Source: Edaphocola sp.
GTDB lineage: Bacteria; Bacteroidota; Bacteroidia; Chitinophagales; Chitinophagaceae
Assembly: GCA_037190225.1 (NCBI GenBank)
Contig: JBBCJL010000001.1
Coordinates: forward strand, 317,035 to 381,034
DNA length: 64,000 nt
Direction of reading: 5' to 3'
Shown piece after piece: positions 16,466-35,074 of this stretch (its first letter is position 1; each line of letters begins with the position of its first letter). The notes beneath the pieces were generated by a model. That model was given only the letters and a program-made list of their open reading frames with translations. It ran no database searches and was not told the DNA's origin. A program made the position numbers and the translations under genes.

Positions 16466-16498
16466 ACAAAGGCTCACAGCATCGCTGTGAGCCTTTGT
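16466..16498. terminator. Bidirectional terminator between the GT4 gene and the end of the minus-strand operon
   Basis: The sequence acaaaggctcacagc-atc-gctgtgagcctttgt forms a 15-bp perfect stem. Confidence 0.7.
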
Positions 16499-16520: not shown

Positions 16521-17444
16521 TTACAGGCCGTAGGTCCTTACGATCCTGTGGTTGCTGTCAAACTCATATCTTGTCCTGGTCTGTTTCTGTACGGACTGCT
16601 GCTTTTCCAGGTCGTAATAGCTATAGGTGGCCGTAACGTTATACTTGTTGTCTCCTACCTTTTCGATAACGACATCATCGTGCTTGATATTGGTCCTTTT
16701 ATTCCAGGAGTCATCGTATAGCTTTTTGATCTCGTCAAAGGTCGGGTAGTTCACGCCCCAGTAGCGTTCCATATTCTCGGAAAAGGTACTGTAAATATTG
16801 TAAATATTCTGCCTGTACTCCGCATCCATGAGCTTTTGTAAAGTAGCGGCATTGGCTTTATCATCCTCATTTTGCGCTTTGTCTGCAGCGGCGGTAGCGG
16901 CGCTGACAGTATCTGCTACAGCTGCGGGAGGGGCGGCCGGCTCAGCAGTAGGCAGGGTATTTACTGCCGGCTGGGCAGTGATGTCCGGTATATGCGTGGT
17001 ATTATCTCCGGGAGCGCCGTTGTTATCATTCATCAGGAAATAGGCCGCCACGCCCGACAGTGCTATCAGTGCGATCACCAGTCCTGTCACCAGTCCTTTG
17101 GAGGAGCCTGAACCGGCACGCGGTTCCGGGACGAGACCGGGAGAAGCCGGTACGTTATTATAGGCGGCGGCCGGGTTAAAATCCGACTGGTTGCCGGTAG
17201 CGTCCGGCCTGGGTATATCGAACAAAGGAGTGGCCGGCTGCAGGGACTTTAAAAATGCCTGTTCCAGCCGCTGTGATTCCTGCGGGGACATCTGCCAGTG
17301 ATTGTACAATCCCTGCAGGTGCTCCCGTATGGCGCTTTCTTCTATCTGCTTCCAGGAGTCGATGATCTCCTGCGGTGCCTGCTGACCGTTTTTCTGGTGA
17401 AATAAAAATGCTATATATTGAGCTATATGCTGCTTATTGATCAT
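16521..17444 (-). CDS. Bitopic membrane protein, unknown function (operon gene 6; paralogue of 17469-18632 in the N-domain)
   Basis: The ~65-aa N-terminal domain has no signal peptide (INKQHIAQYIAFLFHQKNG...SWKQIEESAIREHL). A Pro-rich linker leads to one TM helix (GLVTGLVIALIALSGVAAYFLM). An Ala/Pro-rich spacer and a ~110-aa C-terminal domain follow. Confidence 0.6.
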   Translation of the reverse strand: MINKQHIAQYIAFLFHQKNGQQAPQEIIDSWKQIEESAIREHLQGLYNHWQMSPQESQRLEQAFLKSLQPATPLFDIPRPDATGNQSDFNPAAAYNNVPASPGLVPEPRAGSGSSKGLVTGLVIALIALSGVAAYFLMNDNNGAPGDNTTHIPDITAQPAVNTLPTAEPAAPPAAVADTVSAATAAADKAQNEDDKANAATLQKLMDAEYRQNIYNIYSTFSENMERYWGVNYPTFDEIKKLYDDSWNKRTNIKHDDVVIEKVGDNKYNVTATYSYYDLEKQQSVQKQTRTRYEFDSNHRIVRTYGL

Positions 17445-17468
17445 GTTTAAAATTTTAAGTATAGATAT

Positions 17469-18632
17469 TTAAAGAGAGTCGTACGACCAGGTAAAGTAGG
17501 TGATGTCGCCGGTCTCATCAAATTTGGCATGAAAAGAGGTATTCTCCTTATTGCAGGTGTAGAGGAAATAGGAGCCGTTTGTGAACCTGAACAGCAGGTC
17601 CGCGGCTTCAATATCTATCATATTGCCCCCTTCGGGATTTTTAACCTGCACTACCTGTGGCGGGAAATAGCGGTTCTCATCCGGCAAACCTTTAAACTTA
17701 TAGAATTTATTATCCGATAGCTTGCAGATGACACTGATCGTTTTTTTATCTTTTAAGGTATGCTTGATCACGCTGGTATAATCTGTGCTGTTATTCCCGC
17801 AGGGATTCTTGATATGCAGGCTATACAGCCTGCCGTCCATGGCCAGCGACCCGATAATGACCTTCCGGATATCCGATTTGATCAGGGCCATTTCTTTATT
17901 ATACCTGCTGATCTCGGAGAATACGGTCTTCTGGATGCTGCTGTAATCCTCGCTGTTGGTCAGGTAATTTTTGTTGACATATACCATTTTTTCCTCGTTG
18001 CCGAAAAGATAATCCTTAAAGGTGGCATCGTCCGTCAGCAGCTTCCTGCTTTCAGACACATTGCCTTCCTTATCCACCACTATATTATAGATGGCTGCGT
18101 CCGCTTCGCGCAGGGAAATGATGGAGCTGGGACCGGCGAATATATCCATCCTGCCTACATTTTCGCCGTGGATATTGCGTACAGCTACATTATCGGTAAC
18201 GCTGTACAGCCTTTGGAGCTGGTTGTATTGCCGGTTCTTATACACCACATAGCCGGCTGCAGCAAGGAGCGGTATGAGTATAAGGAGCAGCCATTTATAG
18301 CTCCTTTTACGGGCCGGGAGAGGTGGAGCGGGAGCGGTACGCTGCTGTGGTCCCGGCTGGTAGGCCGGCCTGGGCGCAGGATTCGGATTGCTGCCGGTCT
18401 GCTGTATATCGGATGTTTTTGGCGCATTCAGAAAGCTGTTGATCTCTGCCAGCAGCTGGGCTTCTGTCCAGCCCCACTGGCTGGTCATATTCCTGAGGTG
18501 ACCTGGTATCTCCGCATCTGGTATCTGCGACCAGGAGTTCAGCAGCTCTGGCGGGGGAGTTGTGCCATTACGTTTCCGGAACAGGTGCGCAATGAACAGC
18601 TTTACATTGCCCTGGTTGATTAACATGCTCAT
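17469..18632 (-). CDS. Bitopic membrane protein, unknown function (operon gene 5)
   Basis: The N-domain (INQGNVKLFIAHLFRKRNG...SWSQIPDAEIPGHL) aligns with gene 6. A Pro-rich linker leads to the TM helix WLLLILIPLLAAAGYVVY. A ~250-aa extracytoplasmic domain follows. Confidence 0.6.
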   Translation of the reverse strand: MSMLINQGNVKLFIAHLFRKRNGTTPPPELLNSWSQIPDAEIPGHLRNMTSQWGWTEAQLLAEINSFLNAPKTSDIQQTGSNPNPAPRPAYQPGPQQRTAPAPPLPARKRSYKWLLLILIPLLAAAGYVVYKNRQYNQLQRLYSVTDNVAVRNIHGENVGRMDIFAGPSSIISLREADAAIYNIVVDKEGNVSESRKLLTDDATFKDYLFGNEEKMVYVNKNYLTNSEDYSSIQKTVFSEISRYNKEMALIKSDIRKVIIGSLAMDGRLYSLHIKNPCGNNSTDYTSVIKHTLKDKKTISVICKLSDNKFYKFKGLPDENRYFPPQVVQVKNPEGGNMIDIEAADLLFRFTNGSYFLYTCNKENTSFHAKFDETGDITYFTWSYDSL

Positions 18633-19081
18633 TTGTTATAGGTTTTGTCTATGAGTTTTATCATTACATCGTTCGGGACAGGTACGGCCCCGTCCTTAAT
18701 GACAAAAATAGCATCAATTTTGTTTTCATTCTTACTATAATCAATTTTGAATCCAAAATCGTTCAGTCCATGTGCCAGGACCTTGTCATTGCCGTTAAAA
18801 AAATCCCTGGTAATGGCGCCCGAGTTGCTGAGCGTTACCTTTAAGCGGTTTTGCTCCGTGATAAGGGTAAGGCCAGTGCCATAGGCTTGCTGCAGCAGGT
18901 TGATAAAGGTGTCGGTAATGATATAGTTGAAATGTTCCCTGTTGAATTCCGTATTGGAAACATTCACTACCTTTTTGACGGCCTGCCTGTTGATGGCAAA
19001 TTTGACCCATAGCAGGCTGCCAGCTACCAGGACAACGGTGAGCAGGATAATGAATATCTTATAAGGTGCTGTATGCTTCAT
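18629..19081 (-). CDS. Small N-terminally anchored membrane protein, unknown function (operon gene 4)
   Basis: A single N-terminal TM helix (IFIILLTVVLVAGSLLWV) precedes a ~110-aa soluble domain. The start overlaps the upstream stop (TAATG), and the stop overlaps the downstream start (ATGA). Confidence 0.55.
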   Translation of the reverse strand: MKHTAPYKIFIILLTVVLVAGSLLWVKFAINRQAVKKVVNVSNTEFNREHFNYIITDTFINLLQQAYGTGLTLITEQNRLKVTLSNSGAITRDFFNGNDKVLAHGLNDFGFKIDYSKNENKIDAIFVIKDGAVPVPNDVMIKLIDKTYNK

Positions 19082-22000
19082 TATGGCTGGAAATATTGTT
19101 TGAATGATTTGGATTGAATGGTCTGGTCGATGATCTCGTATATAAGGTTCCAGTCGAAGTCCTGGGTATTATCCGTTACAAAATATAAGGCGTACACTTT
19201 GGCCTTCCCGATATGCTCTGCCTGTGTCAGGTCCTTGTCCGCAATGGTCAGTATCAGGCGCCTGGAGCTCTTCCGGCCTGACTGCTGCTCATTGATGGTG
19301 CCTGTCTTGGCATAGAAATAGTATTGCCCGTATTTGGCGGCGGTTCCCTGCAGCCTTCTGGCCGTCCCGCCGGTGATCACCTGCTTCATACCGGTAAAGA
19401 TATTGGCCGCGAGGAACTGGTTATACCTGTTGTTCCAGGTAGCGTCCACAGCCCAGGGGGACCGGGCCAGCTTCTGCGGTACAACACTGAGCTGCAGGTT
19501 ATTGTTCTGGGTGAACATGGACAGGTACATCTCTGCCATTTTATACGGTGTGATGCGCAGCGGGTAGCCGCCCAGCGCTGCCGTCATGACGCCCAGGTTG
19601 AAGTTCTGGTGTATCTCTGTCTGCGCCCTGTCGGACTGCAGGAAAAAGCTCTCTTCGGGGAAGCTCCACAGGTAGCCGGTATTCTTGTTCCTGCTGAGGA
19701 TATCGGACAGGTAGGGGTCCACGAAATGCACCCGGTCGTTGGTAGTGGCTTTCATATCCAGCTTATCCTTATCCTTGGTCCTGAGCCCGACATTGGTCTC
19801 AAAGCCGTTGGCCAGCAGGGAATTCTCATTCCCGAAATAAGACCGGTGGGTGGCGCTTTTGTCTGTCATCGGCCACTCTTTGCTGCCGTAATTCTTAAGG
19901 TATAGGGCCCGGCCCTTATAGGTTACAATGGGAAAGGTATTGTTCCGGCCCGGCTGGTCTGTCAGCACGCTGCTCAGCGTGTACTGGCTGCCCTGCAGGA
20001 AATCTTCCCTGGTATAGGAGCCCAGGAACATATACAGCGCGTGGTAAAAATTGCTGGAGTGTGCGATGAACGCGGGGATATCCATAGGCGCGTAATAATG
20101 CTCGTCATTTTTCCAGGGCTTGATCAGCCGGAGGCCTGCAAAATTCTCGCGGTCGCCTCCCGGTGCGGTAAAGATGAGGGATTCCCAGCCAGCATTGACC
20201 TGCGATGTGACCACTCCCGCGGTCAGCGCCTTGATGGACGAGCCGGGCCCGAGGTAGAGGTTCAGCAGGTTCCTGTTGCCCCACTGGTCCCTTTCGTTCT
20301 TGGCATTGCTATAAAAGAACTGCTGGCGCTGCAGCGCAAAAATGGTAGGCTGGTCATTCGGGTCTATGACCCGCCTGTTGCTCACATAATCGTTCATAAA
20401 GCGGATATGCCCATCACCATCGGCTCCTATAACGCTGAAGTTGAAATTGGTATGCCTGGTGCCGAAGGTCGTGCCGGCGCTTTTTTGTATCGCCCGGTGC
20501 ACCGCGGAGGACAGGTCGTAATCCAGCGTAATATAATTATTGGCCAGCAGCATGCTGTCATTGCTGTAAGCGCCCCGTATGGCGTTGGCATAGCTGTAGA
20601 TCCAGAAATTATCGCTCCTTAAAGGATAAATGATCCTGTAGGTGCCGTTGATCCATTTATTGGTGGCATATTTATTGCCTTCCGACTGGAAGCCCAGCTG
20701 GTAGGCCTTGCCCTGCTGGTAGATCGTGGCCATATCATCATATTGCAGGGTACCCGCATAGGAGGTGGCATTCTGTATCATGTTCTTCTGCGCGTTCTTA
20801 TAGATGAACACGCTTGTCTGTCCGGCATTGGCATTGATGATATTCAGGATGCCCACATTATCCTGGGCACCTTTCACCCAGTTTTTCGGGATCACGGCCA
20901 GCTGGTAATTGCCGGACGGGTTATGGGTAAAGAAAGGCAGTATGATACGGCGCTTCTCCTTGTCCGAATACAGCAGGGCGGTAGCGCTCCCTGCCGCCTG
21001 GATGGATTCAAGGATATTGCCCTGCCATATCTTACGGCTTTCCACGGGCGGCAGCTCCAGGTAGAGGTTTTTATTGTAAACGGCATTATACCTGCCATTA
21101 TCATAGATCATGAATAATGGATTGCTGAGCTGGAATGCTGTGGCAGGCTTTTGTACCAGGTTATCCAGTATGCTACGGGTATAATTATCCTTAACGACAT
21201 CGTTGCGGAGCGTCTGGAAATTGGTGTCCGCCGCGAGCAGTGTGATGACCTTATTATAGGTGATCTTTTCCCGCTTTGCTTCCATCCCGTCCTGTATGTT
21301 GGCCAGTATAGCGTTCAGGTCCTTTTCAACGTGCTCTTTGGTAGTCTCCATGACGATGGAGAAATTATCATTGTTCAGCTCATTTTCCCTGACGGTGGTC
21401 AGCGCGAAAACAGCGATCAGCGCAATAAAGAGTATATAGCGGATGCTGCTGCTCTGCACATCTACCTGGAAAGAATGCTTGGGCGTAGGACGCTGCATCA
21501 GGGTAACCGCCCACAGCAGGAGCGGCAGCAGGACGCTTAGCCTGCTGGTAAGGCTCAGGAAGGGGAAGTCCTGCCCGAAGAATACGAACCTGTTGGTAGC
21601 GGTAAGCCATACGAACAGGGCTATGGTGAACAGGATCAGCAGGGGGATCAGGCCGGTATAGCTGTCTATATCCCGCTGCCTTTCTTTGGTATTGACGAGT
21701 GTCAGCTGGTAAGCTATCAGGTAAAATACCATCGGTATCACCATCAGGAAGAGGATCAGGTACATGGTAAAATCGCCCCATTCGCTGATGACGTACCTGG
21801 CCAGCACCACATCCCTGGTCTGCGTGGAATAATCCACACCGATCCTGGAATGCGCCCGCAGGTTGATGGTCTCGCTGTTGTCATACTCCTTGGAAATATA
21901 GGAATTGATGAACCATTGGTTTTCCGCGGTCTCAATGATCTTCTGGGTCTTGAAGGAGGTGTATTCGTTGGCCTGCAGCAATTCATGGATAGGCTGGTAA

Positions 22001-24546
22001 ATAATGGAGGCGCGGTATTGCACGTGCTTCACCACATCTGCCATCTGGTGGTCCATCCATTTCCGGGTAACGGGAATGACCGCGAGAATGCCCGCCGCTA
22101 CTGCTATGACCATACCTGCCGACTGTACTCTTTTAGGCGCGGACAGGGCACGCAGCACAACAGCGGCGAGCGCCAATACCCCGAAGAAGACCCATACCTT
22201 GTAGGTCAGCAGGTAGTAGAACAGGGGCTTTACGGATAATAAGGTGAGGTACAGGGCCAGGGCTGTCAGCCCGTATATCCAGAAGTTCTGCGGCATCAGG
22301 AGCCTGTTGGCAATAGATACCCTGGTATTGGCCAGCGGCTTTTTAAGGAAGTTGACAAGGATGTTCTTCAGTAAAAGGAACAGGAAGAACAGGATGGCAA
22401 ATCCCCTGTCCGTCAGGCCGAAGAACACGAGGGTGGTAAGGGTGATAAAGGTGGTAGGATTATTGAAAAAGTAGTAAAGGAGCGCATGCAGGTGCTCCAG
22501 CCACTTCTTTTTGCCGCCGTACAGCAGGGGCTTGGGAGTATATTCAAAAGCGGCATTGGCTTTGCCGGAATAATACACATAGCCCAGTATAGGCAGCAGT
22601 ATGCTGACGATCCTGGTCAGGAGCTCGATATGCAGCACTTTCTTATTCAGCATAAATACCACGAAGCACAGGCCGATAAAGGCGATGTATTGCAGGTTGA
22701 TATTGCTGAGCCTGGGGCTGAGCTTCGTGAACAGGCTGCCGGCATCCGGCAGTACCCGGCTAAGCAGGCCGGTCCTGTACAGGATCAGCAATATTACCAT
22801 GCCGAGTATCCAGATGACCGTAAGCGGCAGGGGGAGCTGTATGCCGATATTGAAGTCAAAATTCAGGAGCGTATTTTCCAGCTCATGCTTGGAGATGTTC
22901 TCCAGCGGCGGGAAGGTTGCCAGGCGCCAGTACATGATGAACCTCAGCACCGACAGCGCCATGATGACCATCAGGATAATGGGCTCTATGCGTTCCAGCT
23001 TCTTGCCCGGGAAGAAGACCTGCAGGATCACGAACGAGGCGAAGATAAGCCCCAGGTAAAAAATGGACTTCTCCGTGCTGAAGCCGTTATCGCTGAAATC
23101 CCGGAGCTGGAAGAGGTACTGGGCTTTCTGGTCTTTGGTCAGCAGCGCGAACTTCCGGTCCGTCACCTGGATGGAGGCGCTGGACGCATTGAAGTCGGCC
23201 ACGTTCAGCTCTATGGCTGTATTGGGCTGCCCGGAAATATAATCTATGCTGCCGTTGACAGGCGTAGCGGTCACGAGCTGGTAGGTGTTGAATAAAAAGC
23301 CTTCCTTGAGATCATTGCCTATGATCTGCTCGAAATCATTGGTGATAAAGCGGATGTTCTTATTGCCCGCTTCCTGCTTGCCGGGACTCCTGAGCATATA
23401 GGTATTCGGGTAATCGAAATACAGCGCGGCATCCATTTTCCTGCTCTGCGGGTAGCCGGTTGCATCAAAGCGGTCTATATATAATTGCTTCCTGTAGTTG
23501 CTGAAGCCGATGTAGAACTTTTCCGCATAGGCGATGCCTGATGTGTTTTTGAGCCGGGGAGCGGCCGCCTGCCCGTCGATCTTTACCGTATAGTTGTTTT
23601 CAAAAACGTTCTTAGCAGGGAAGAATTTATACTGCTTGTCCGTATGTTCAAAATGGGCCAGGAGATAGCTGTCGCCCAGCTCCTGCAGCATGGCTTCCAG
23701 CACCTGGTAGCTTTCCGGCTTCCCGGATTCAAAGGTCCGGCCGTTCAGCAGCAGCTCAAACAGTTGCTTGCCTATGTTCAGGTCGGATGTGATGATCGTG
23801 ATGTGATCCTGGTAAGGCGCCTGCACATTCCACTGGGATAATATCTCGGGATTTTTGCCCGTCAGCGATACGGTAAATTGCAGCCCGTCCTTTTCATCGG
23901 ATACCAGCTTTCTGAAGAATCCCGGCTTATAAGGAGCCACCTGTATGGTGACGTCAAAGTCCGCGTTGGACAGCTGCAGCGACTGTTGTATGGGTTGGGG
24001 ATAAATATTGTTCAGCAAAGCGGCTTTCCTGCCGTCAACGGGTTTAAACACCGGGATAAAGAACCGGTCAAACTGTAAGGAGGCCGTGCTGCCGCTGCCC
24101 TTTACGGTAATACTGCCGGTCTGTGCATTGCTGTCCGTAGCGGTGCTTTCCAGGAACAGCTGATCCTGGAAAGCGATCCCGGCATTGCTGAGTCCATGGT
24201 AATCATTGTTTAAGAACCATGTGCGGTTGCCGAAGGGATGGGTAGTGGTATAGATGCACCATACACCCAGGATAAATACTACGGACAGCACGGCGAATTT
24301 GAGAATGCCTTCCCACTTTTTGCCGAACAGGAAGAGCTTATGGCCGATGCCGGGATCGTTGCCGATGTCCTTTTGCTTCTTCTGGAATACGGTATTGACA
24401 ATATCCTCCAGCTGGAGCTGCACCACGAAGTAAACAATGATGGCCATTATGGTCAGGCTGAGGAACCAGCTGATCACACTGCCCCAGAGTATGTTCATGG
24501 TGATGATGATACCTGCTGCCAGAGCAGTATAGATATATTTGAGCAT
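19081..24546 (-). CDS. Giant (1821 aa) polytopic membrane protein: N-terminal extracytoplasmic domain, ~14-TM core with SEDS-like features, and a C-terminal penicillin-binding-protein (transpeptidase-fold) domain
   Basis: The three PBP active-site motifs occur in order. GPGSSIKALT (SxxK) lies at 20230-20241, AHSSNFY (SxN) at 20050-20058, and FYAKTGT (KTG) at 19297-19308. A dimerisation-like segment lies upstream (ITLDYDLSSAVHRAIQ ... FSVIGADGDGHIRFMNDY). The membrane core has a ~90-aa loop followed by TRDVVLARYVISEWGDFTMYLILFLMV (21769-21789 encodes ISEWGDF). It also contains FFGQDFPFLSLTSRLSV (about 21550-21586). These two segments resemble the SEDS TDFIF..GEE.G..G and G.PLPF.SYGGSS regions. 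Confidence 0.7.
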   Translation of the reverse strand: MLKYIYTALAAGIIITMNILWGSVISWFLSLTIMAIIVYFVVQLQLEDIVNTVFQKKQKDIGNDPGIGHKLFLFGKKWEGILKFAVLSVVFILGVWCIYTTTHPFGNRTWFLNNDYHGLSNAGIAFQDQLFLESTATDSNAQTGSITVKGSGSTASLQFDRFFIPVFKPVDGRKAALLNNIYPQPIQQSLQLSNADFDVTIQVAPYKPGFFRKLVSDEKDGLQFTVSLTGKNPEILSQWNVQAPYQDHITIITSDLNIGKQLFELLLNGRTFESGKPESYQVLEAMLQELGDSYLLAHFEHTDKQYKFFPAKNVFENNYTVKIDGQAAAPRLKNTSGIAYAEKFYIGFSNYRKQLYIDRFDATGYPQSRKMDAALYFDYPNTYMLRSPGKQEAGNKNIRFITNDFEQIIGNDLKEGFLFNTYQLVTATPVNGSIDYISGQPNTAIELNVADFNASSASIQVTDRKFALLTKDQKAQYLFQLRDFSDNGFSTEKSIFYLGLIFASFVILQVFFPGKKLERIEPIILMVIMALSVLRFIMYWRLATFPPLENISKHELENTLLNFDFNIGIQLPLPLTVIWILGMVILLILYRTGLLSRVLPDAGSLFTKLSPRLSNINLQYIAFIGLCFVVFMLNKKVLHIELLTRIVSILLPILGYVYYSGKANAAFEYTPKPLLYGGKKKWLEHLHALLYYFFNNPTTFITLTTLVFFGLTDRGFAILFFLFLLLKNILVNFLKKPLANTRVSIANRLLMPQNFWIYGLTALALYLTLLSVKPLFYYLLTYKVWVFFGVLALAAVVLRALSAPKRVQSAGMVIAVAAGILAVIPVTRKWMDHQMADVVKHVQYRASIIYQPIHELLQANEYTSFKTQKIIETAENQWFINSYISKEYDNSETINLRAHSRIGVDYSTQTRDVVLARYVISEWGDFTMYLILFLMVIPMVFYLIAYQLTLVNTKERQRDIDSYTGLIPLLILFTIALFVWLTATNRFVFFGQDFPFLSLTSRLSVLLPLLLWAVTLMQRPTPKHSFQVDVQSSSIRYILFIALIAVFALTTVRENELNNDNFSIVMETTKEHVEKDLNAILANIQDGMEAKREKITYNKVITLLAADTNFQTLRNDVVKDNYTRSILDNLVQKPATAFQLSNPLFMIYDNGRYNAVYNKNLYLELPPVESRKIWQGNILESIQAAGSATALLYSDKEKRRIILPFFTHNPSGNYQLAVIPKNWVKGAQDNVGILNIINANAGQTSVFIYKNAQKNMIQNATSYAGTLQYDDMATIYQQGKAYQLGFQSEGNKYATNKWINGTYRIIYPLRSDNFWIYSYANAIRGAYSNDSMLLANNYITLDYDLSSAVHRAIQKSAGTTFGTRHTNFNFSVIGADGDGHIRFMNDYVSNRRVIDPNDQPTIFALQRQQFFYSNAKNERDQWGNRNLLNLYLGPGSSIKALTAGVVTSQVNAGWESLIFTAPGGDRENFAGLRLIKPWKNDEHYYAPMDIPAFIAHSSNFYHALYMFLGSYTREDFLQGSQYTLSSVLTDQPGRNNTFPIVTYKGRALYLKNYGSKEWPMTDKSATHRSYFGNENSLLANGFETNVGLRTKDKDKLDMKATTNDRVHFVDPYLSDILSRNKNTGYLWSFPEESFFLQSDRAQTEIHQNFNLGVMTAALGGYPLRITPYKMAEMYLSMFTQNNNLQLSVVPQKLARSPWAVDATWNNRYNQFLAANIFTGMKQVITGGTARRLQGTAAKYGQYYFYAKTGTINEQQSGRKSSRRLILTIADKDLTQAEHIGKAKVYALYFVTDNTQDFDWNLIYEIIDQTIQSKSFKQYFQP

Positions 24547-25655
24547 TATAAGTCTTTTAATTTATACCCGTGGATGATATAATTATCCAGGTCCTTTATT
24601 CCCAGCTGTTTCAGCACTGATATGGTCTGCCGCAGGTTGACCGGTGTTTTGTCCACAGGGGTGCCTTGCGTCAGCTCGGGGTATTTCTGGTGGTCGGACT
24701 TGTTCTTAAGCAGGGTATTGATATTGGTGATATCGTAATCCTGGCGTTTGGCCAGCTTTTCGCGGGTAATGGCGGTGTACTGTACGGAAGCCATGGTCAT
24801 ATATTTGAATATATTGGCAAGGTCCCCCTGGTCTATGGCGGATTGCAGGGGTAGTATGATTTCCTGGAATGCGGTCTTATAATAAGCTGTGTCCGCGTCT
24901 ATCGCCTGCTTTAGCTCCTTATGATTGCGCTTGAGGTCCGTATAGCTCTGCTTGAGTATTTTGCTGTCCTCGCGCAGCTTATCATATTTCTGCTTTAGCT
25001 GGGTGATGTTGACATTCGCTCTTGACCTGGGCTTGTCGGGCGGAGCGGCAGCTGCCTCTTCCTGCTGGAGCGGTGAGCCTCCCTGGCCGTCTTCTTCCAC
25101 CTCGATCTCTTCCGGCAGCGCTGCGGGCCTGGTGCCGGCCTTCGCCAGCAGGAACCCTGCCGCTATACCGGCTACGGGCAGCAATACGAACCAATACCAG
25201 TTGCTGCTGCCGGTGTTCGGGTCTGTGCCGGAGGCGTCCTGGGGCCTTACCAGCTTTTCCTGTTCGCTTCCTGCCTGGAGCTGCTGTTCATTTGCCACAT
25301 AAAGGGTGCGCTGCGGCAGCTCATTGGCATGGCTCAGCAGCTTTTCCAGGTTGTCGATATCGCCGTACTGCTTATACCTGGCATCTATCAGGTCCGCGGG
25401 GATCTTAAGCAGGCTCAGGATTTTCTGGTTGTCGGCCTTGTTCTTAAGCAGCACTTTGCCATCGCGTATCTCTATCGGTACCGTTTGCTTCTCATTATCT
25501 ACTGTAATAAGGGCGGACTGGTCGGTAGTGATCTTAATGCTGATATTTTTATCAAATCCGTTATCACTGATGATGAACGTATTTTCCCGGGTGGGCTGTG
25601 CCCACAGGAGTAGGGATTGTAAGGTGAGTATACTGATGAAAATGAATTTTTTCAT
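24546..25655 (-). CDS. Bitopic membrane protein with cytoplasmic coiled coil, unknown function (operon gene 2)
   Basis: A signal peptide (MKKFIFISILTLQSLLLWAQ) precedes a ~140-aa extracytoplasmic domain and the TM helix WYWFVLLPVAGIAAGFLLA. An acidic/Pro linker leads to a coiled coil (ITQLKQKYDKLREDSKILKQSYTDLKRNHKELKQAI) and a C-terminal globular part. The stop overlaps the start of the giant gene (TAATG). Confidence 0.6.
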   Translation of the reverse strand: MKKFIFISILTLQSLLLWAQPTRENTFIISDNGFDKNISIKITTDQSALITVDNEKQTVPIEIRDGKVLLKNKADNQKILSLLKIPADLIDARYKQYGDIDNLEKLLSHANELPQRTLYVANEQQLQAGSEQEKLVRPQDASGTDPNTGSSNWYWFVLLPVAGIAAGFLLAKAGTRPAALPEEIEVEEDGQGGSPLQQEEAAAAPPDKPRSRANVNITQLKQKYDKLREDSKILKQSYTDLKRNHKELKQAIDADTAYYKTAFQEIILPLQSAIDQGDLANIFKYMTMASVQYTAITREKLAKRQDYDITNINTLLKNKSDHQKYPELTQGTPVDKTPVNLRQTISVLKQLGIKDLDNYIIHGYKLKDL

Positions 25656-25853
25656 AGATTGTAATTGTGTATTGTTGGGTTAGATACAATAAGGATATTA
25701 TGAAATGAACTTCGGTTTAACAGCATATCCCGGTAAATGGTTGACTGCCCGGCCGGCGATCCCTGTGCGTTACGGAACGCCCTGTATTTGAATATTAGCT
25801 TTATTGGTCCCCGGGCTTTCAGGTCACGTACATTCATCCGGCATATGACCGGC

Positions 25854-25896
25854 AAGGATTCCGGTGAGCGGCCGCCGGCCGCTCACCGGAATCCTT
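25854..25896 (-). promoter_or_regulatory. 20-bp perfect inverted repeat overlapping the stop codon of the ASKHA gene (attenuator or terminator-like hairpin)
   Basis: The arms are aaggattccggtgagcggcc (25854-25873) and ggccgctcaccggaatcctt (25877-25896), with a 3-nt loop. No U tract follows on the minus strand. Confidence 0.5.
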
Positions 25897-28591
25897 AGAA
25901 ATACAAGGGGCCTGAATTGCCGCCGGTATTATTGTTGTTGTTATTGTTGCTTTTATTGTCTGCCGGGGGCTGGATGTCAAAGTACATCGGACCGTTGGCC
26001 GGCGGCGCGGGGGGCGCAGGGCTCAGGTCGATAGCTTTCTGGAACGTATGTATGAACTCTTCATCTATATAATTAGGGAACAGGGAAGGAATGACCATAT
26101 TGAGCTCGATATCCTCCGTATCGAAGATCTCCTGGAGCTCTATGATATTCTTAACGATGCCGTTCTCCAACTTCCGGACCAGGTAGCCTTTTTCCGTGAA
26201 CATCAGGTTGGCTTCCTCCCGGATGCCCGGCTGCTGGCTGTAGATGCTGTTGCCTACGATCTTATAGCGCTTGCCGCCTATGAGTATCTGGCTGTTGGCC
26301 AGGGAGTCGTAGTGCAGGCTGGTATGCGTGGTGGGTATGACCGCTTCCACGTTTTCAAGATCATTCAGCTCATTGAAAAATATCTTCAGCAGGCGGGACT
26401 GTATGCTCACTTTTGGCTTGCCTGGTGCTGCCGGGGCTTGTCCCGTCTCGGCAGCGGGCAGCTTGGGACGGCTGATGACCTGTATGGGATAGCCTATTTT
26501 TTCCGCATTCAGGCGTACGGAATTGTTGAACACGCCTTTTATACAGATATCCTTCAGCTCGTTGCCGTTCAGCAGGTGTACCCTGGACGCAGGGATATCC
26601 AGCTCCTGCTCCAGCTGCTTCCGTACCTGCTCTTCCAGGGGCTTGAAAAGGAAGGCCCTTCCGGACAGGATCACGCCGCCGCAGCTGAACTGTTCCGCAT
26701 TCTTTTTCACAAGCCTGATATTCTGCACCACGCGGGTGGCGATCACTTTGCAGGTTTCCGTGATGTAACCGTAGAAATCGCTGATATTCTCAATGCCGGT
26801 CAGCAGGTTTTTGAAGGTGCTGGTAATATCAGCGCGGCCTTCTTCGGTCAGGTTCCTGAAGTTGGTATCGCCCACGCTGGCCTGCTGCCACTGGCTCAGC
26901 ACATAGGGGCTGTTGTCCGTATATTTGAATTTCAGCCTTTCTATCTGGGCAAAAATATTGTTCTTAAGCTCCAGGTCATTGCTGTTCAGCACATTGATGA
27001 TCTTTTCCTTGATGAATTTAAACGCTTCGTGCTGGTTGGACGCATTGGCCCTGATATAATGTAATATGGTCTCGAAAACGGCAAAGGTGATCAGGTTGCC
27101 CGCGCCCGCAAAGCCGTTGCGGTACACGGTCTTGATGTCGAAAACATTACGGGCGCCGGTCCGGATGATGGAAAGGTCCGTTGTGCCTTTACCGGAATCT
27201 ATAATGACATATTCCCGGTTCTTGTCGATCTGGGTATCGTTCTTATTGATATAGCCCAGGAAGGACGCATCGCTTTCCGATATGGTAATGATCTCCCAGC
27301 TCAGCAGCTTGCCTTTGTACTCATGGTCTGCAAGCGACTGGAAGATATTGTGCAGGATCTGCTGGGTGCTTTTGATGTCGTAAAAATCATAAATATTGGG
27401 TACCAGCAGGATGAAGCGGATCTTACGGGTGGCATCATAGGAAATGAGGAATTCCTTTTTCAGGAAGGATTCTATCATCACCCTTAAGATGGTATTGTAC
27501 ACCTTGTTCTTCATGACGCCCAGGCTCACATTGATATCGTAGCCCTCCTTGTCGATGTTGAAGTTGATGCCGGAAAAGAGGCTGTCGTACTTCTGGGTGA
27601 TCTTGAGGTTCGGGAGCTGGTGATACTTATTTTGCGTCAGCACCTGGTAGCCGTCATGCGTATTGACCAGCATCTTCAGGTTATGCGCCACATCGGCTAT
27701 AAAGAGATCCTTATAGATATTGTCGTACTGCCCGCTCTGGTTCTCCTTCAGGAAGAAGATGGATTTATAGAAATTGGTGTTCTTCTCTTCCTGGTAATAG
27801 CTGGCCTGCTCCTCTTTGCTGATCCAGCCCTGGGATTTGTTGAATGCCAGGATGTTTTTGAACAGGTTCTCTATTTCCGGGCGCATCTGCTGGTGATGCT
27901 CACCATACTGGTAGCGCTTGATGGCCATCTGGCTGGCTTCGGAGCCGAAATCCAGCGCAATGCCCAGGAACTGCTCGGGGTGCGCGAAGCTGATGGTGGT
28001 CTTATTGCTGAACTGCTGTCCTTCCGTTTCCAGTGTCAGCTCCAGGGTAAGGTCGGGAAAGGCGGCATCCAGCAGCTTATTGAAAGCGCCGGTGATATAG
28101 CCGGTCACCAGCATGGCGCCGTTGCTGTACCTGTGCCGGATGAATTTGATGGTATCCTGCCACACGCCTATGATCTCGGAATCGGATTGCACGGCTTCCA
28201 CGGTGTTCTGGGCTGTTACCTTTTCCTTTTTAGGGGCTGATTTGAACAGCTCCAGGTCCTCGTAGCTGTACACCGGGGGCGGTTCGGGCGCTTCCTGCTC
28301 CGGCTCGGGCGCTTCATATAAAGGTTGCTTTTTCCTGGGGCCGATGTGCAGGCGTAAAGTGTCAGACTCCAGGATGCACTGTACGGAACAGTCCTTGATA
28401 TCAAGATCGGGGTGTTGCGGGATGAAGCTTTTTAAAATGCTGTCCGCCTGCAGCTCCGCAATATTGAAATGGGCGTTCCTGTGCGCCTCTACTATATATT
28501 TGAATACGGTGATATCATCCTTCTGGTGATATAAATTGATGATTTTTTCTCTTCTGTCGTTAATAATGATCGGTAAGCTATAAAAGTCCAT
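25895..28591 (-). CDS. Divergent actin/Hsp70-superfamily (ASKHA-fold) ATPase, 898 aa (operon gene 1)
   Basis: Three ordered motifs are present. The phosphate-1-like motif is LGIALDFGSEASQMAI (about 27929-27961). The phosphate-2 motif is EYVIIDSGKGTTDLSII (DSGKGTTD at 27177-27200). The adenosine-like motif is CGGVILSGRAFLF (about 26661-26689). There is no signal peptide or TM helix. The protein has a ~200-aa N-terminal extension and a Pro-rich, poly-Asn C-terminal tail (SPAPPAPPANGPMYF...NNKSNNNNNNNTGGNSGPLYF). Confidence 0.65.
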   Translation of the reverse strand: MDFYSLPIIINDRREKIINLYHQKDDITVFKYIVEAHRNAHFNIAELQADSILKSFIPQHPDLDIKDCSVQCILESDTLRLHIGPRKKQPLYEAPEPEQEAPEPPPVYSYEDLELFKSAPKKEKVTAQNTVEAVQSDSEIIGVWQDTIKFIRHRYSNGAMLVTGYITGAFNKLLDAAFPDLTLELTLETEGQQFSNKTTISFAHPEQFLGIALDFGSEASQMAIKRYQYGEHHQQMRPEIENLFKNILAFNKSQGWISKEEQASYYQEEKNTNFYKSIFFLKENQSGQYDNIYKDLFIADVAHNLKMLVNTHDGYQVLTQNKYHQLPNLKITQKYDSLFSGINFNIDKEGYDINVSLGVMKNKVYNTILRVMIESFLKKEFLISYDATRKIRFILLVPNIYDFYDIKSTQQILHNIFQSLADHEYKGKLLSWEIITISESDASFLGYINKNDTQIDKNREYVIIDSGKGTTDLSIIRTGARNVFDIKTVYRNGFAGAGNLITFAVFETILHYIRANASNQHEAFKFIKEKIINVLNSNDLELKNNIFAQIERLKFKYTDNSPYVLSQWQQASVGDTNFRNLTEEGRADITSTFKNLLTGIENISDFYGYITETCKVIATRVVQNIRLVKKNAEQFSCGGVILSGRAFLFKPLEEQVRKQLEQELDIPASRVHLLNGNELKDICIKGVFNNSVRLNAEKIGYPIQVISRPKLPAAETGQAPAAPGKPKVSIQSRLLKIFFNELNDLENVEAVIPTTHTSLHYDSLANSQILIGGKRYKIVGNSIYSQQPGIREEANLMFTEKGYLVRKLENGIVKNIIELQEIFDTEDIELNMVIPSLFPNYIDEEFIHTFQKAIDLSPAPPAPPANGPMYFDIQPPADNKSNNNNNNNTGGNSGPLYF

Positions 28592-28610
28592 ATCTCAGTA
28601 AGTTTGAATA

Positions 28611-28618
28611 CAAACTTA
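28611..28618 (-). promoter_or_regulatory. Candidate -7 box (TAagTTTG) for the ASKHA operon
   Basis: The minus strand reads TAAGTTTG 19 nt upstream of the ATG at 28591. I saw no clear -33 TTTG. Confidence 0.4.
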
Positions 28619-28809
28619 AAAATACTACTTTTTTGATAATCCCGATAAATATTCGGTAAATGCCTGTTTTCCGGCCATGAACGATAGAAGATGCCTTTTT
28701 TAGTTGGTCATCCAGGAGAAGGCTGCCTGGTCTTTCAAGGCAGGAGCCTTCAATAACGGACCGGTCAAAAATGCCGGTCTTTTGTGATGATGATGATATG
28801 CCTTTGCTA

Positions 28810-29400
28810 TTATGATTCCCTGACCCTGGTAAGCAGCATATTGAATTGCAGATCGTTCAGGGTACTGCTTTGGGTGTCCTCTTCCAGCAGTATCCTCCCG
28901 CTTCCCTTTACCTCGTATACATCCACAGGATTAAAGATGGTGGTGTCTGCCTTGATCCACTTGACCGATTCGATTTTAATATAATAGGCGGCGACATCCA
29001 TCGTATCATAAGTATTCCAGCGTGGCAGGTCATAATTTTCTTCAAAATATATCCTGGGCGTTATGCCATCCTTCAATGCAGTCGGAAGTGTTTTGCCTGT
29101 AAGCGACAGCACCTCTTCGTGGGTAGGGTGGTGATCGAACCGTAATGTTACTTCCAGGGACGGGTCCACGGTAGAGAGTGGCCTTACAACCGCAATGCCT
29201 CCCACACTATGCTCAAGGCTGGATATATACTGGGCAGTTGCCTCAGGGTAAGAAATCTTATAATCCTTATTGCCAAAGTTGAAATTGGCATAATAAGGCC
29301 GCAGATTGGCGGGCTGGTCTTCATTTTTATGCTTATCCTCCTTATTACAGGAAAAGATCAGCAGGGCGCCCCCGAGGAGCAGGATGATCCGTTTATTCAT
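28810..29400 (-). CDS. Lipoprotein, unknown function
   Basis: A lipoprotein signal is present (MNKRIILLLGGALLIFSC). The start is set at the ATG at 29400. The gene lies 218 nt upstream of the ASKHA gene on the same strand, and its membership in the operon is unclear. Confidence 0.6.
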   Translation of the reverse strand: MNKRIILLLGGALLIFSCNKEDKHKNEDQPANLRPYYANFNFGNKDYKISYPEATAQYISSLEHSVGGIAVVRPLSTVDPSLEVTLRFDHHPTHEEVLSLTGKTLPTALKDGITPRIYFEENYDLPRWNTYDTMDVAAYYIKIESVKWIKADTTIFNPVDVYEVKGSGRILLEEDTQSSTLNDLQFNMLLTRVRES

Positions 29401-29544
29401 TTGATTGGCTGGAAATTGCAAATATAGTGATATTTTGTTTATTTTAACAATGTTTAAATTTTAGTGAATTGTCGGCGCGCCCCTACTTTACCGGCCCTTT
29501 CAACTGAAGTATATCCGGTATTTATAACAGCATCAAGATTCTAC

Positions 29545-32593: not shown

Positions 32594-32632
32594 AAACAGC
32601 AAGTCTTTAATCCGTAAAATATATATCAAGTG

Positions 32633-33970
32633 ATGAAAAAAAGTATAATGGTAGCCGCGCTCTCGCTGCTCACAGGATATTTTGCGGCTGCGCAGACCCC
32701 TTTGGGTCTTAATGACGCGGTAGCTTATGCCCTGAAGCATAAAGCGGAGGCCGTAAAGGCGCGGCTGGATATTAAGAACAGCGCTTATGTCATTGAAGAG
32801 GCCCGTGCCAACGCGCTGCCCCAGATCAATGCGAACGGGGGACTGACCTATAATGCGATCCTGCAGCAAATGGCGCTGAATATGGGCGGTCAGTCAATGG
32901 TCATAAAAATGGGGCTTCCCTGGCAATCCACTGCTACCGTGCAGCTGGACCAGCAGATATTCAACCTGGCGGTATTTACCGGCCTGAAGGCAGCCCGCAG
33001 CACGAAAGAGTTCTATGTGATCAATGCGGAGCTTACGGAGGAGCAGATCGTGGAAAAGGTGGCCGGCAGCTATTATGAAGTCTTCAGGACCCAATCGAAG
33101 ATAGCCACTATCAACAGTACGATCAGCAATACGGAAAGGGTGAGGGATGTTATCAGCAGCCTTTTTGACAACGGGCTGGCCAGGAAGATAGACCTGGACC
33201 GGATGAATGTGACGCTGAACAACCTGTCTGCCGGCAAGCAGCAGCTGCAGAATGCCCTGCAATTACAGGAGAACTCCCTTAAATACCTCATTGGTATGGA
33301 TATCAGTGAGCCCGTGGTGCTACCGGAAGGCACATTTGAGATAGATCATTCGCTGGTATTGGACAGGAGCGCAGCGGATATTGAGAACCGTACAGAGATC
33401 AGGCTGATGGAACAGCAGGGACAGCTGCTCCATTATAACAAGCAGGCTATAGCGGCACAGCGCTATCCCACACTGGCGCTCAGCGCCAATTACGGCTACC
33501 TTGGGCTGGGTGATAAGTTCCCTTATTTCGCGGGCAGCAACAGCGGTGTGAACTGGTCTGATATGTCTGCTGTTTCCCTGAACCTGAGAGTGCCTATCTT
33601 CAGCGGCTTTTCCACCCGTGCCAGGATCCAGCAGGCACAGATAGAGATAGATAAATATGAAACGGACCTGCGGGACACACGCCTGGCCCTGAGCCTGGCG
33701 CTCGAAAATGCCTTTACACAGCTAAGCAATTCCCTGATGACGCTGAATGTCCAGAAGTCCAATGTTAACCTGGCGCAGGAAGTACTGATCAATATCGAAA
33801 ATAATTATAAGAACGGGCTGGCATCACTGACAGACCTGCTGGATGCGGAAACTTCCTATGCGGATGCCCGTAACAGTTACACCGGCGCGCTCCTGGATTA
33901 TAAGCTTGCTGAAGTTCAGCTTGTCAAGGCCAGAGGCGAATTGAAATCCTATTATTCTACTTCTCACTAA
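32633..33970 (+). CDS. TolC-family outer membrane efflux protein
   Basis: A signal peptide (MKKSIMVAALSLLTGYFAAAQ) is followed by two OEP repeats with characteristic coiled segments. It is the first gene of the tripartite efflux operon. Confidence 0.8.
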   Translation: MKKSIMVAALSLLTGYFAAAQTPLGLNDAVAYALKHKAEAVKARLDIKNSAYVIEEARANALPQINANGGLTYNAILQQMALNMGGQSMVIKMGLPWQSTATVQLDQQIFNLAVFTGLKAARSTKEFYVINAELTEEQIVEKVAGSYYEVFRTQSKIATINSTISNTERVRDVISSLFDNGLARKIDLDRMNVTLNNLSAGKQQLQNALQLQENSLKYLIGMDISEPVVLPEGTFEIDHSLVLDRSAADIENRTEIRLMEQQGQLLHYNKQAIAAQRYPTLALSANYGYLGLGDKFPYFAGSNSGVNWSDMSAVSLNLRVPIFSGFSTRARIQQAQIEIDKYETDLRDTRLALSLALENAFTQLSNSLMTLNVQKSNVNLAQEVLINIENNYKNGLASLTDLLDAETSYADARNSYTGALLDYKLAEVQLVKARGELKSYYSTSH

Positions 33971-33994
33971 ACTAAAATATCCCAACATAAATAT

Positions 33995-35053
33995 ATGAAA
34001 AAGGTAATTATATCAGGCGTTGTAGTGATAGCAGCACTGGCAGGTATTTTCCTGGTACTGAATAAGAACAAGGCCAGGAATGAGGCGGAAACAGCGGTAG
34101 TGGCCGAGCAGAATGCGGGCGTTGCCGTAAGGGTTGAGCCGGCGGGCAGGAAGACCGTAAACCTCCGGTATACAGCTAATGGCGTCTTTTCGCCCTGGCA
34201 GGAGGTCATGATAGCGGCGGAAACCTCCGGACGGGTAGCCAGGGTGCTGGTAAAAGAAGGGGCCGGCGTCAGCGCGGGACAGGTGCTGGCCGTGATAGAA
34301 GCGGACAAGCAAAATGTGCAGCTCTCGAATGCGCAGGCCGTTTATAACAATGCCCGTTCCGAAGTGGAGCGTTTTGAAAATGCCTTCGCGACCGGTGGCG
34401 TTACCCGGCAGCAGCTGGACCAGGTAAAGCTGCAGCTGGAGAACGCCAGGAACAACCTGAAAAGCGCGCAGCTCACCGCCGGTGATGTCAATATAAAGGC
34501 TTCCTTTGCGGGTATTGTGAACAAAAGGAGCGTAGAGCCCGGCGCCTATGTTTCTCCCGGACAGCAGCTGTTCGAAGTGGTCAATGTCTCTACGCTCAAA
34601 TTAAGAGTGAATGTAGATGAAAAGAATATAGGCGCCATTAAGCTTGGTCAGCAGGTGAAAGTAGGATCGGCAGTGCTGCCGGACCGGAGCTGGAGCGGTA
34701 CGGTTGCCTTTATCGCACCCAAGGCGGATGCCAGCCTCAACTTTGCTGTAGAGCTGGAAATAAAGCAGGTGACCGGTTCAGACCTGAAAGCAGGTATGTA
34801 TGGTACTGCGTACTTCGGTGCGGAGCAAAGCAGCGAGGCGTTCGTCATTCCCAGGAATGCCTTTGTGGGCAATATCAGCTCCAACCGGGTATTCGTGGCG
34901 GAGAACGGTAAGGCCGTATTAAGGCAGATCACTGCCGGAAGGAACTTCGGGGAATACATAGAGGTCGTTGCCGGGCTGGAGCCGGGAGCGCAGGTGATCA
35001 CTTCAGGCCAGATCAATCTTTCTGACCAGGCTCCGGTAACAATTATTAAATAA
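33995..35053 (+). CDS. Efflux RND periplasmic adaptor (membrane fusion protein)
   Basis: An N-terminal anchor precedes a lipoyl/hairpin region (GQVLAVIEADKQNVQLSNAQA...QLDQVKLQLENARNNL) and a beta-barrel domain. Confidence 0.85.
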   Translation: MKKVIISGVVVIAALAGIFLVLNKNKARNEAETAVVAEQNAGVAVRVEPAGRKTVNLRYTANGVFSPWQEVMIAAETSGRVARVLVKEGAGVSAGQVLAVIEADKQNVQLSNAQAVYNNARSEVERFENAFATGGVTRQQLDQVKLQLENARNNLKSAQLTAGDVNIKASFAGIVNKRSVEPGAYVSPGQQLFEVVNVSTLKLRVNVDEKNIGAIKLGQQVKVGSAVLPDRSWSGTVAFIAPKADASLNFAVELEIKQVTGSDLKAGMYGTAYFGAEQSSEAFVIPRNAFVGNISSNRVFVAENGKAVLRQITAGRNFGEYIEVVAGLEPGAQVITSGQINLSDQAPVTIIK

Positions 35054-35074
35054 CTTTCAAATGACCATAAGCAG

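Follow-up and report, generated by a model that had tools for sequence, protein, structure and literature searches.

On the minus strand of a 64-kb window from Edaphocola sp. (the window being the whole stretch of DNA that we analyzed) lie six co-oriented genes that probably encode an accessory cell-wall machine. Numbered g1 to g6 in reading order, they specify a cytoplasmic protein predicted to be an Hsp70-like ASKHA ATPase (g1), a bitopic protein (g2), a giant inner-membrane protein with a predicted penicillin-binding protein (PBP)-type transpeptidase domain at its C-terminus (g3), and three proteins that are each predicted to have one transmembrane (TM) segment (g4, g5 and g6). We read this cassette as a PBP-centred envelope machine with an ASKHA partner and, tentatively, as an accessory, ATP-regulated periplasmic transpeptidase complex that would be specific to the Bacteroidota. 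To our knowledge, the transpeptidase of every known peptidoglycan synthase is paired with either a GT51 or a SEDS polymerase, and the organizers on the cytoplasmic side are actin- or tubulin-like. The cassette departs on both counts: its PBP-type domain is fused to a membrane domain without a detectable known relative, and it is always encoded with an Hsp70-like ATPase. We found no description in the literature of the cassette, nor of an Hsp70-like ATPase linked to a PBP.

The six reading frames lie where a preliminary description of the locus, made from the DNA sequence, had placed them, and both their conservation and their synteny in other genomes (see below) support them as genes. All six are under purifying selection, with ratios of nonsynonymous to synonymous substitution (dN/dS) of 0.05–0.19 relative to the closest relative, locus L003 of the metagenome-assembled genome (MAG) 'Bacteroidetes bacterium 47-18', whose proteins are 89–97% identical. 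The same description had seen no recognizable named orthologues, and scans of Pfam, NCBIfam, PADLOC-DB 2.0 and PHROGs likewise returned no significant family for any of the six proteins; by sequence comparison the cassette is without a match to any named family, defence system, plasmid or phage. Weak matches to DDR, MYO6_lever, CgeC, GltJ, LPXTG and PepSY_TM were set aside, since they reflect low-complexity, coiled-coil or single-loop similarity.

A predicted transpeptidase domain at the C-terminus of g3

The g3 gene (19081–24546) encodes a protein of 1821 aa with ~17 predicted TM segments. It comprises 2–3 N-terminal TMs, a periplasmic domain (residues ~99–490), a core of ~14 TMs (491–1051), a periplasmic linker (1052–1364) and a PBP-type transpeptidase domain (~1365–1821, encoded at 19084–20454). 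This last domain holds, in the order first reported in the preliminary description, the motifs GSSIK (S1436/K1439; SxxK at 20230–20241), SSN (residues 1497–1499; SxN at 20050–20058) and KTGT (residues 1747–1750; KTG at 19300–19308), and all three are invariant in 27 sequences, down to ~20% identity. Among g3 homologues, nine of the 27 close ones and seven of the 27 distant ones match PF00905 (best E 4.2e-6), and hhalign aligned a profile of residues 1053–1821 with E. coli PBP2 and PBP3 (E 4.5e-5, probability 69%) over the 'G-x-P-x-x-x-TP-x-x-MA ... GTA ... KTGT' region, which is the C-terminal part of the transpeptidase only. Profile matches of the domain to PBP1B and FtsI in the PDB, sub-threshold, fall at the same motifs; phmmer and hmmsearch of PDB sequences with g3 or its full-length profile gave nothing usable. 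By eye, the g3 segment FSVIGADGDGHIRFMNDY...DPN resembles the PBP2 segment GAVVVTDPRTGGVLALVSTPSYDPN. The SxxK and SxN motifs are 61 residues apart in g3 versus 57 in E. coli PBP2 (S330, S387), and SxN and KTG are 250 residues apart versus 157, which implies an insertion of ~100 residues in g3. We take the C-terminus of g3 to be a divergent high-molecular-weight PBP transpeptidase domain, for which catalysis is predicted.

The g1 model has an Hsp70-like rather than an actin-like fold

The g1 gene (25895–28591) encodes an 898-aa protein, in which no TM segment was predicted, and belongs to a family of 631 clusters at 90% identity. It carries the motifs DFGSE at residues 214–218 (phosphate 1) and DSGKGTTD at 465–472 (phosphate 2), and across 37 diverse members of the family D214, G216, S217, E218, E439/D441 (connect), D465, G467-D472 and G644-R645 (adenosine) are invariant. 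An AlphaFold2 model of g1 (pLDDT 77, pTM 0.78) places the nucleotide-binding domain at residues ~205–700, preceded by N-terminal beta domains at 1–85 and 136–203 and followed by a disordered linker (712–746), a beta domain (748–822) and a disordered tail that ends in a conserved PLxF. Distant homologues align over residues ~180–850 only. When this model was compared with the PDB using Foldseek, 262 chains matched at E <=0.001 (best E 2.6e-11), and the best 50 of these 262 were all Hsp70-family chaperones (BiP, Sse1/Hsp110, DnaK, Hsc70 and Ssb). The probability of the match to Hsp70 nucleotide-binding domains was 1.0, and chains that consist of this domain only had target-normalized TM-scores of 0.55–0.62. 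Actin-like chains (MreB, FtsA or ParM) were absent from those 50.

The ASKHA fold that had been suspected for g1 was thereby recovered. The accompanying suggestion, that g1 is actin-like and forms part of a cytoskeleton-guided machine, found no support, as the model matches the nucleotide-binding domains of Hsp70, BiP and DnaK and not MreB or FtsA. On this model g1 is an ASKHA ATPase that is Hsp70-like rather than actin-like, with ATPase activity predicted. Sequence searches with g1 gave sub-threshold matches to DDR, MreB_Mbl, FtsA and Hsc70 that were confined to the phosphate-2 loop, which aligns to both MreB and Hsc70. Among Pfam families, MreB_Mbl (best E 0.002) and FtsA (best E 0.013) remained sub-threshold for the g1 family, neither g1 nor 37 homologues matched Pfam HSP70 (PF00012), and phmmer and hmmsearch of PDB sequences gave nothing usable. 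Like Hsp70, DnaK and Hsp110, g1 has phosphate-1, phosphate-2, connect and adenosine motifs, and a nucleotide-binding domain that precedes a linker and a beta-rich domain. Unlike them, it has an identity of only ~11–14%, two extra N-terminal beta domains and large insertions, and it is obligatorily linked to membrane proteins, with neither a J-protein nor a nucleotide-exchange factor linked to it. No J-domain gene was found in the cassette, and an HPD at g1 residue 60 was rejected as a J-domain, since it sits in a beta domain and its Asp alone is conserved.

The membrane core of g3 and its predicted topology

The membrane core of g3 (residues 485–1062 as modelled; 21361–23094) had been described as SEDS-like, and this description found no support. 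PF01098 was matched neither by g3 of the window nor in scans of 54 members (27 close and 27 distant homologues), a core-only profile had no match among PDB sequences, and hhalign against E. coli RodA and FtsW gave a probability of 0.33% and E 0.18. The sole segment aligned, NRFVFFGQDFPFLSLTS, located in the loop that leads into the penultimate core TM, paired with the SEDS motif G-x-PLP-x-SYGGS at no significance. An AlphaFold2 model of residues 485–1062, built on a shallow alignment (49–80% identity), was of moderate quality (pLDDT 68, pTM 0.74) with a large loop poorly predicted; its best Foldseek match in the PDB had E 1.1, and no SEDS, WaaL or GT-C chain was among 50 matches at E <=10. With no Pfam, profile or structural match, we do not take the core for a SEDS polymerase. 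A phmmer search of 1.84 billion representative proteins with the core returned 226 matches. Almost all of the 150 relatives listed are 1,700–2,100 aa long, so the core appears almost only in this giant architecture.

To predict the topology of g3, we took the helices of the model, applied the positive-inside rule and required a periplasmic location for the PBP domain, which gave a self-consistent arrangement of 14 core helices. In this predicted arrangement, the cytoplasmic loops contain no residue conserved at >=90% (mean top-residue frequency 0.14–0.32), and the periplasmic loops, except two turns of 1–2 residues, hold invariant polar residues (frequency up to 0.86). The invariant polar residues of the core are R535, W540, R541, D713, G715, R845, Q909, D912, R917, E922, R986, Q992 and D993, and all of them fall at or in predicted periplasmic loops. 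As modelled, then, g3 turns its working face to the periplasm. The last helix of the core and the periplasmic transpeptidase that follows it would be laid out much as a class B PBP (bPBP) anchored beside a polytopic partner.

This layout has precedent, as natural SEDS–bPBP fusions exist: a survey has catalogued 117 such proteins, including one from Pedobacter, with examples of 947 aa in Rhodococcus jostii and 1341 aa in Pedobacter ginsengisoli (PMC12516126). Because that survey relied on InterPro SEDS and transpeptidase signatures (PMC12516126), and g3 of the window matches neither at threshold, it probably would have missed g3. We weighed the literal possibility that g3 is a SEDS polymerase fused to a bPBP and guided by a filament of the MreB/FtsA type, which would make the cassette a third elongasome or divisome. 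Its parts list does parallel FtsA–FtsQLB/N–FtsWI, and, like RodA–PBP2, FtsW–FtsI and their fusions, g3 has a polytopic domain with conserved periplasmic loops followed by a TM helix and a PF00905-type transpeptidase, a pairing that mimics the bPBP anchor, and is encoded beside small bitopic partners and a cytoplasmic ASKHA protein; the alignment of NRFVFFGQDFPFLSLTS with the SEDS motif points the same way. The SEDS fold consists of 10 TM helices with a large extracellular loop 4. Against this, the g3 core has ~14 helices, and neither sequence, profile nor predicted fold detectably relates it to SEDS. Further differences are that no bPBP pedestal was detected in g3, that g3 has an extra N-terminal periplasmic domain of ~390 aa and is about twice the length, and that the cassette is accessory and sporadically distributed. 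With the nearest structures to g1 being Hsp70s and not MreB, FtsA or ParM, we consider this explanation very improbable.

Bitopic and small partner proteins

The g2 gene (24546–25655; 369 aa) encodes a bitopic protein with a signal-peptide-like N-terminus, a periplasmic part of ~135 aa, a TM at residues 156–174 and a charged or coiled-coil C-terminal cytoplasmic domain of ~195 aa. Its conservation in BLAST comparisons is concentrated at residues ~200–369, the cytoplasmic C-terminal region, which makes g2 a candidate trans-membrane link to g1. The product of g4 (18629–19081; 150 aa) is predicted to be anchored at its N-terminus and periplasmic; g4 is translationally coupled to g3 and is part of the conserved core of the cassette. 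The g5 protein (17469–18632; 387 aa) is bitopic, with a conserved cytoplasmic N-domain of ~65 aa, a Pro-rich linker, a TM at residues 112–130 and a periplasmic domain of ~255 aa, and g6 (16521–17444) encodes a further bitopic protein of 307 aa. Earlier, g5 and g6 had been called bitopic paralogues. Both are indeed bitopic, and their paralogy proved to be limited to the ~65 N-terminal cytoplasmic residues (BLASTP E 1e-12 over residues 1–135). An iterative hidden Markov model of g2 began to draw in g5 and g6. We do not claim homology of g2 and g6, because their similarity in direct BLASTP (E 0.05) is confined to the TM and low-complexity sequence.

An ASKHA protein encoded with bitopic proteins that could offer it short cytoplasmic N-domains as docking sites, linking it to a periplasmic machine, is a theme that the cassette shares with the FtsA–FtsN/FtsQLB, MreB–RodZ/MreC and PilM–PilN/PilO modules. 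It differs from these in that g1 is Hsp70-like, that g2, g4, g5 and g6 match none of the corresponding families, and that all of its contacts are proposed ones.

Distribution and synteny of the cassette

A pattern scan with g1, using one genome per species for 185,579 species, yielded 194 relatives, and 77 of these loci were retained. Wherever a locus is long enough to include both genes, g1 and g3 occur together (68 loci in five family- or order-level clades), and every such locus has g1, then a g2-like gene with 1–2 TMs, and then a g3 homologue of 1,725–1,896 aa. A g2 homologue or positional equivalent directly follows g1 in nearly all loci, and, across all the clades, most loci that continue beyond g3 have a g4 homologue (~150–190 aa, single TM) as the next gene. 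The synteny anticipated for related genomes thus extends well beyond the Chitinophagaceae, where Taibaiella, Edaphocola and Flavipsychrobacter are carriers, to the Cytophagales (Emticicia, Lacihabitans, Runella, Persicitalea and Dyadobacter), the Saprospiraceae, the Flavobacteriaceae (Winogradskyella and Spongiimicrobium) and rumen and gut Bacteroidales. The identities of g1 and g3 to those of the window fall in parallel (96/97, 67/65, 53/53, 47/46, 30/37 and 26/25%), which argues for co-inheritance. Judged by gene content and order, g1-g2-g3-g4 is the core of a cassette that is sporadic across the Bacteroidota.

Two Emticicia genomes and one Lacihabitans MAG each have two divergent g1–g3 copies on different contigs (L031/L061, L032/L065 and L053/L066), of which one is ~30% and the other ~26% identical to g1 of the window. 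Together with the sporadic distribution, these double copies support the earlier proposal that the cassette is an extra system and not a divergent housekeeping mre or fts locus; this accessory status is judged from distribution alone. In addition, phmmer with E. coli RodA, FtsW, PBP2 and FtsI against the open reading frames (ORFs) of 79 loci found no match.

Cassettes close to the Chitinophagaceae or Emticicia versions were also seen on contigs labelled as Bifidobacterium, Cyanobium or Citrobacter MAGs (L021, L026, L036 and L078), most likely through binning contamination.

Beyond the core, the cassette varies. Homologues of g5 were found in the Chitinophagaceae, in Emticicia and in one Lacihabitans MAG (L044), and g6 is confined to close Chitinophagaceae relatives. 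The fifth position differs among clades and is usually taken by a bitopic protein, and all-against-all clustering of the locus genes found no family beyond g1–g5 that is common to several clades. In a Cytophagales MAG, a fusion of a caspase (Peptidase_C14) with an FGE-sulfatase domain overlaps the end of the g4 homologue by ATGA (L058:12245–13828); in a Saprospiraceae MAG, a DUF4407 membrane protein follows g4 and an extra 109-aa ORF (L046:15295–16887); and in a Prevotellaceae MAG a 5-TM Peptidase_M50B-like protein follows g4 (L077:18318–18989). In two Bacteroidales MAGs (L074:20403–21374 and L076:19112–20140), the g4 homologue continues into a transglutaminase-like (papain-fold) core domain, which scored 46.7 bits versus a cut-off of 23. 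As this domain is of a peptide-bond enzyme type, the fusion fits periplasmic peptide chemistry.

Caspase and FGE-sulfatase pairs are typical of conflict systems, as is a conserved core with swappable protease-type modules. These 3' genes, including the M50B-like protein, the DUF4407 protein and the transglutaminase-like fusions, together with the sporadic distribution, double copies and varying flanks, led us to consider that the cassette is an envelope sensor or conflict system. On this view g3 would sense a ligand with its PBP-like domain, either by becoming acylated by beta-lactams or by binding muropeptides or D-Ala-D-Ala as in BlaR1 and MecR1, and the signal would pass through the bitopic proteins to g1 and on to a lineage-variable effector. 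Like BlaR1 and MecR1, g3 is a membrane protein with a C-terminal extracytoplasmic PF00905-type penicillin-binding domain, and BlaR1-type sensors, catalogued as Peptidase_M56–TPase proteins, also match PF00905 and keep SxxK and KTG (PMC12516126). Other features of g3 speak against a sensor. No M56 domain was matched by g3 or in the scans of its homologues, and HExxH is absent from all six proteins; the membrane domain is far larger than in BlaR1/MecR1 and lacks a conserved cytoplasmic loop that could emit a signal, and the many invariant periplasmic polar residues of its 14-TM core suggest catalysis or substrate binding over anchoring. A BlaI-type repressor is lacking as well, the neighbours being an MFS transporter, a lipoprotein, a GT1 glycosyltransferase and an aminotransferase, and there is no transcription factor, kinase or nuclease in the core or linked to it here. 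The extra genes of the window and its closest relatives encode plain bitopic proteins, not effectors, the six proteins have no PADLOC match at E <=0.1 and no significant PHROGs match, and the cassette lies outside defence islands and mobile elements. We regard a sensor or conflict system as possible, if doubtful, and as the main competitor of the reading that we favour; the preliminary description had raised an ATPase-coupled envelope sensor of the PBP type as its own alternative.

A mobile-element origin was rejected, as g1 had no relatives on plasmids, phages or IMG/VR contigs. Flanking genes differ among genomes, and those of the window have housekeeping roles, encoding topoisomerases, MFS transporters, an aminotransferase, a GT1 and an RND pump. 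In several Taibaiella and Edaphocola genomes (L002/L006:1–6002, L007–L011, L018, L023, L029 and L043), huge genes with Ig_7, PKD and Por_Secre_tail domains, that is, cargo of the type IX secretion system (T9SS), stand directly 5' of g1; they are absent from the window. In Bacteroidales (L074:7145–9499, L076:7207–9540 and L079:6584–9478) a co-oriented gene for a 777–964-aa protein with 2–3 TMs and no Pfam match ends ~20 nt or less from the start of g1, and may be an extra lineage-specific component.

T9SS-cargo neighbours and variable periplasmic accessory proteins would also suit a machine for the assembly or export of a surface protein or polymer, in which the PBP-fold domain would be a peptidase or transpeptidase for a non-peptidoglycan substrate, as in sortase-like anchoring or maturation, and g1 would handle that substrate in the cytoplasm. 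Hsp70-type proteins bind extended polypeptides, and in g1 a C-terminal beta domain follows the nucleotide-binding domain. The T9SS-cargo genes are lineage-specific, however, no channel-like or ABC component is present, and the g3 core matches no transporter fold. We judge such a machine to be distinctly unlikely.

A model for a periplasmic transpeptidase complex

The reading that we favour, an accessory periplasmic transpeptidase complex regulated by ATP, draws on what is shown above, namely folds and motifs, conservation that tracks topology, shared gene order and distribution; from these we infer the substrate, the direction of coupling and all of the contacts between the proteins. In this model g3 would be the enzyme. 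Its PBP domain would act on peptide stems of the D-Ala-D-Ala type, making or remodelling D-Ala-D-Ala-derived cross-links in peptidoglycan or in a polymer attached to it, and, beside the transpeptidase, its core would retain or process a substrate that is lipid-linked or close to the membrane. The small anchored protein g4 would serve as a periplasmic cofactor of g3. We propose that g1 is an ATP-driven regulator or power source; because g3 has no conserved cytoplasmic surface, g1 would have to act through the cytoplasmic domains of g2, as part of the core, and of g5 and g6, as lineage-specific components. Bitopic partners connect FtsA and MreB with FtsWI and RodA–PBP2, just as PilN connects PilM with the type IV pilus machinery. 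The coupling may follow a similar logic to FtsA/FtsN–FtsWI or MreB/RodZ–RodA/PBP2, even though two of the three key parts did not match those families in tests of membership.

Several points weigh against this reading. Window g3 itself reaches no Pfam threshold (no match at E <=0.1), and its assignment as a PBP comes from the homologues, the invariant motifs and the hhalign match of 69% probability. The bPBP pedestal PF03717 was not matched in scans of the 27 close and 27 distant g3 homologues, and residues 1052–1364 show no pedestal similarity, the transpeptidase C-terminal part having been aligned alone by hhalign. No kinship of the core with a polymerase, ligase or flippase could be detected, so its proposed work on lipid-linked substrates is conjecture. 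Nor is the cassette accompanied by Mur, lipid II or flippase genes, and we know of no Hsp70-like ATPase that is a PBP partner. The variable fifth gene, with its caspase–FGE-sulfatase, DUF4407 and M50B-like proteins in single loci, resembles that of a signalling or conflict system, as do the sporadic distribution and double copies. For all of the cassette proteins, enzymatic activity is a prediction.

An extension of the model would have the ~14-helix core represent an unrecognized family of periplasm-facing enzymes for lipid-linked substrates. Peptidoglycan, or a polymer resembling it, would then have a third type of polymerase besides GT51 and SEDS, without kinship to either; this enzyme would be permanently joined to a transpeptidase of its own, and an Hsp70-type ATPase would switch it by way of bitopic adaptors. 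We hold this extension to be unlikely.

Under any of these readings, ATP hydrolysis by an Hsp70 fold would be tied to periplasmic penicillin-binding chemistry, in an arrangement that recurs in at least five family- or order-level groups of Bacteroidota, including rumen and gut Bacteroidales. In Bacteroidota of the environment and the gut, the cassette could also offer a new target, or a decoy, that binds beta-lactams, and ~226 clusters at 50% identity make up a membrane-protein family that has yet to be classified. Culturable carriers are available in Taibaiella, Edaphocola, Emticicia, Dyadobacter, Runella, Persicitalea and Spongiimicrobium, among them Edaphocola flava, Dyadobacter sp. CY261 and Runella salmonicolor; OZ245855.1, OZ241334.1 and NZ_JBNTQY010000001.1 are examples of complete genomes with the cassette.

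Gene junctions and predicted transcription signals

The genes g2 to g5 are joined by overlapping stop and start codons (TAATG at g2/g3 and g3/g4, ATGA at g4/g5), and g6 follows g5 after a gap of 24 nt, as had been described. That description also had a promoter and a terminator bracketing a single six-gene unit. Both elements are present as sequence. The -7-type box TAAGTTTG (28611–28618, minus strand), 20 nt 5' of the g1 ATG, fits the Bacteroidota consensus TAnnTTTG, and a hairpin with a 15-bp stem (16466–16498) lies between g6 and the convergent GT1 glycosyltransferase gene. As the consensus has 17 matches on the minus strand of the 64 kb, the box is weak evidence by itself, and we regard it as a weak candidate promoter box for g1. 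The g6/GT1 hairpin (z = -5.9 in a folding computation) is likely a bidirectional terminator, as predicted.

A spacer of 239 nt between g1 and g2 had been overlooked. It contains a perfect 21-bp GC-rich stem-loop on the minus strand (25853–25897) that overlaps the g1 stop codon, and this region has a folding energy of -51.3 kcal/mol (z = -8.1) with no U-tract after it. With such a spacer and hairpin, it is uncertain that this strain makes one transcript of all six genes. The spacer is ~270 nt in the close relative L003, and more distant relatives (L001, L002 and L004) have <=24 nt or a gene overlap at this junction, so the long spacer is peculiar to this lineage. The hairpin could be an attenuator, an internal terminator or an mRNA-stabilizing structure, and g1 may be transcribed separately from g2–g6, or at a different level, in this strain.

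Other features of the window

Lying 5' of g1 and co-oriented with it is an ORF (28810–29399, minus strand) for a lipoprotein of ~196 aa (MNKRIILLLGGALLIFSC...) that has no family match. It has its own -7 box, TATATTTG (29419–29426), and a terminator-like hairpin (28758–28780). In L003 an ORF of similar size occupies this place, the likeness being one of size and position only, and more distant relatives have different genes there; the lipoprotein ORF is probably outside the cassette.

Elsewhere, an ORF of 457 aa on the plus strand (3361–4734) matches no Pfam family at E <=1e-5. The window also contains a Wzc-like tyrosine-kinase gene with GNVR and AAA_31 domains at its edge (20–1345), an OEP/HlyD/AcrB RND efflux operon (32630–38251), a HerA-like helicase gene (45472–46992; PF05872, E 4e-169) and a gene for a PF00144 beta-lactamase-family protein (50596–51822), all four of which appear to be unconnected with the cassette.

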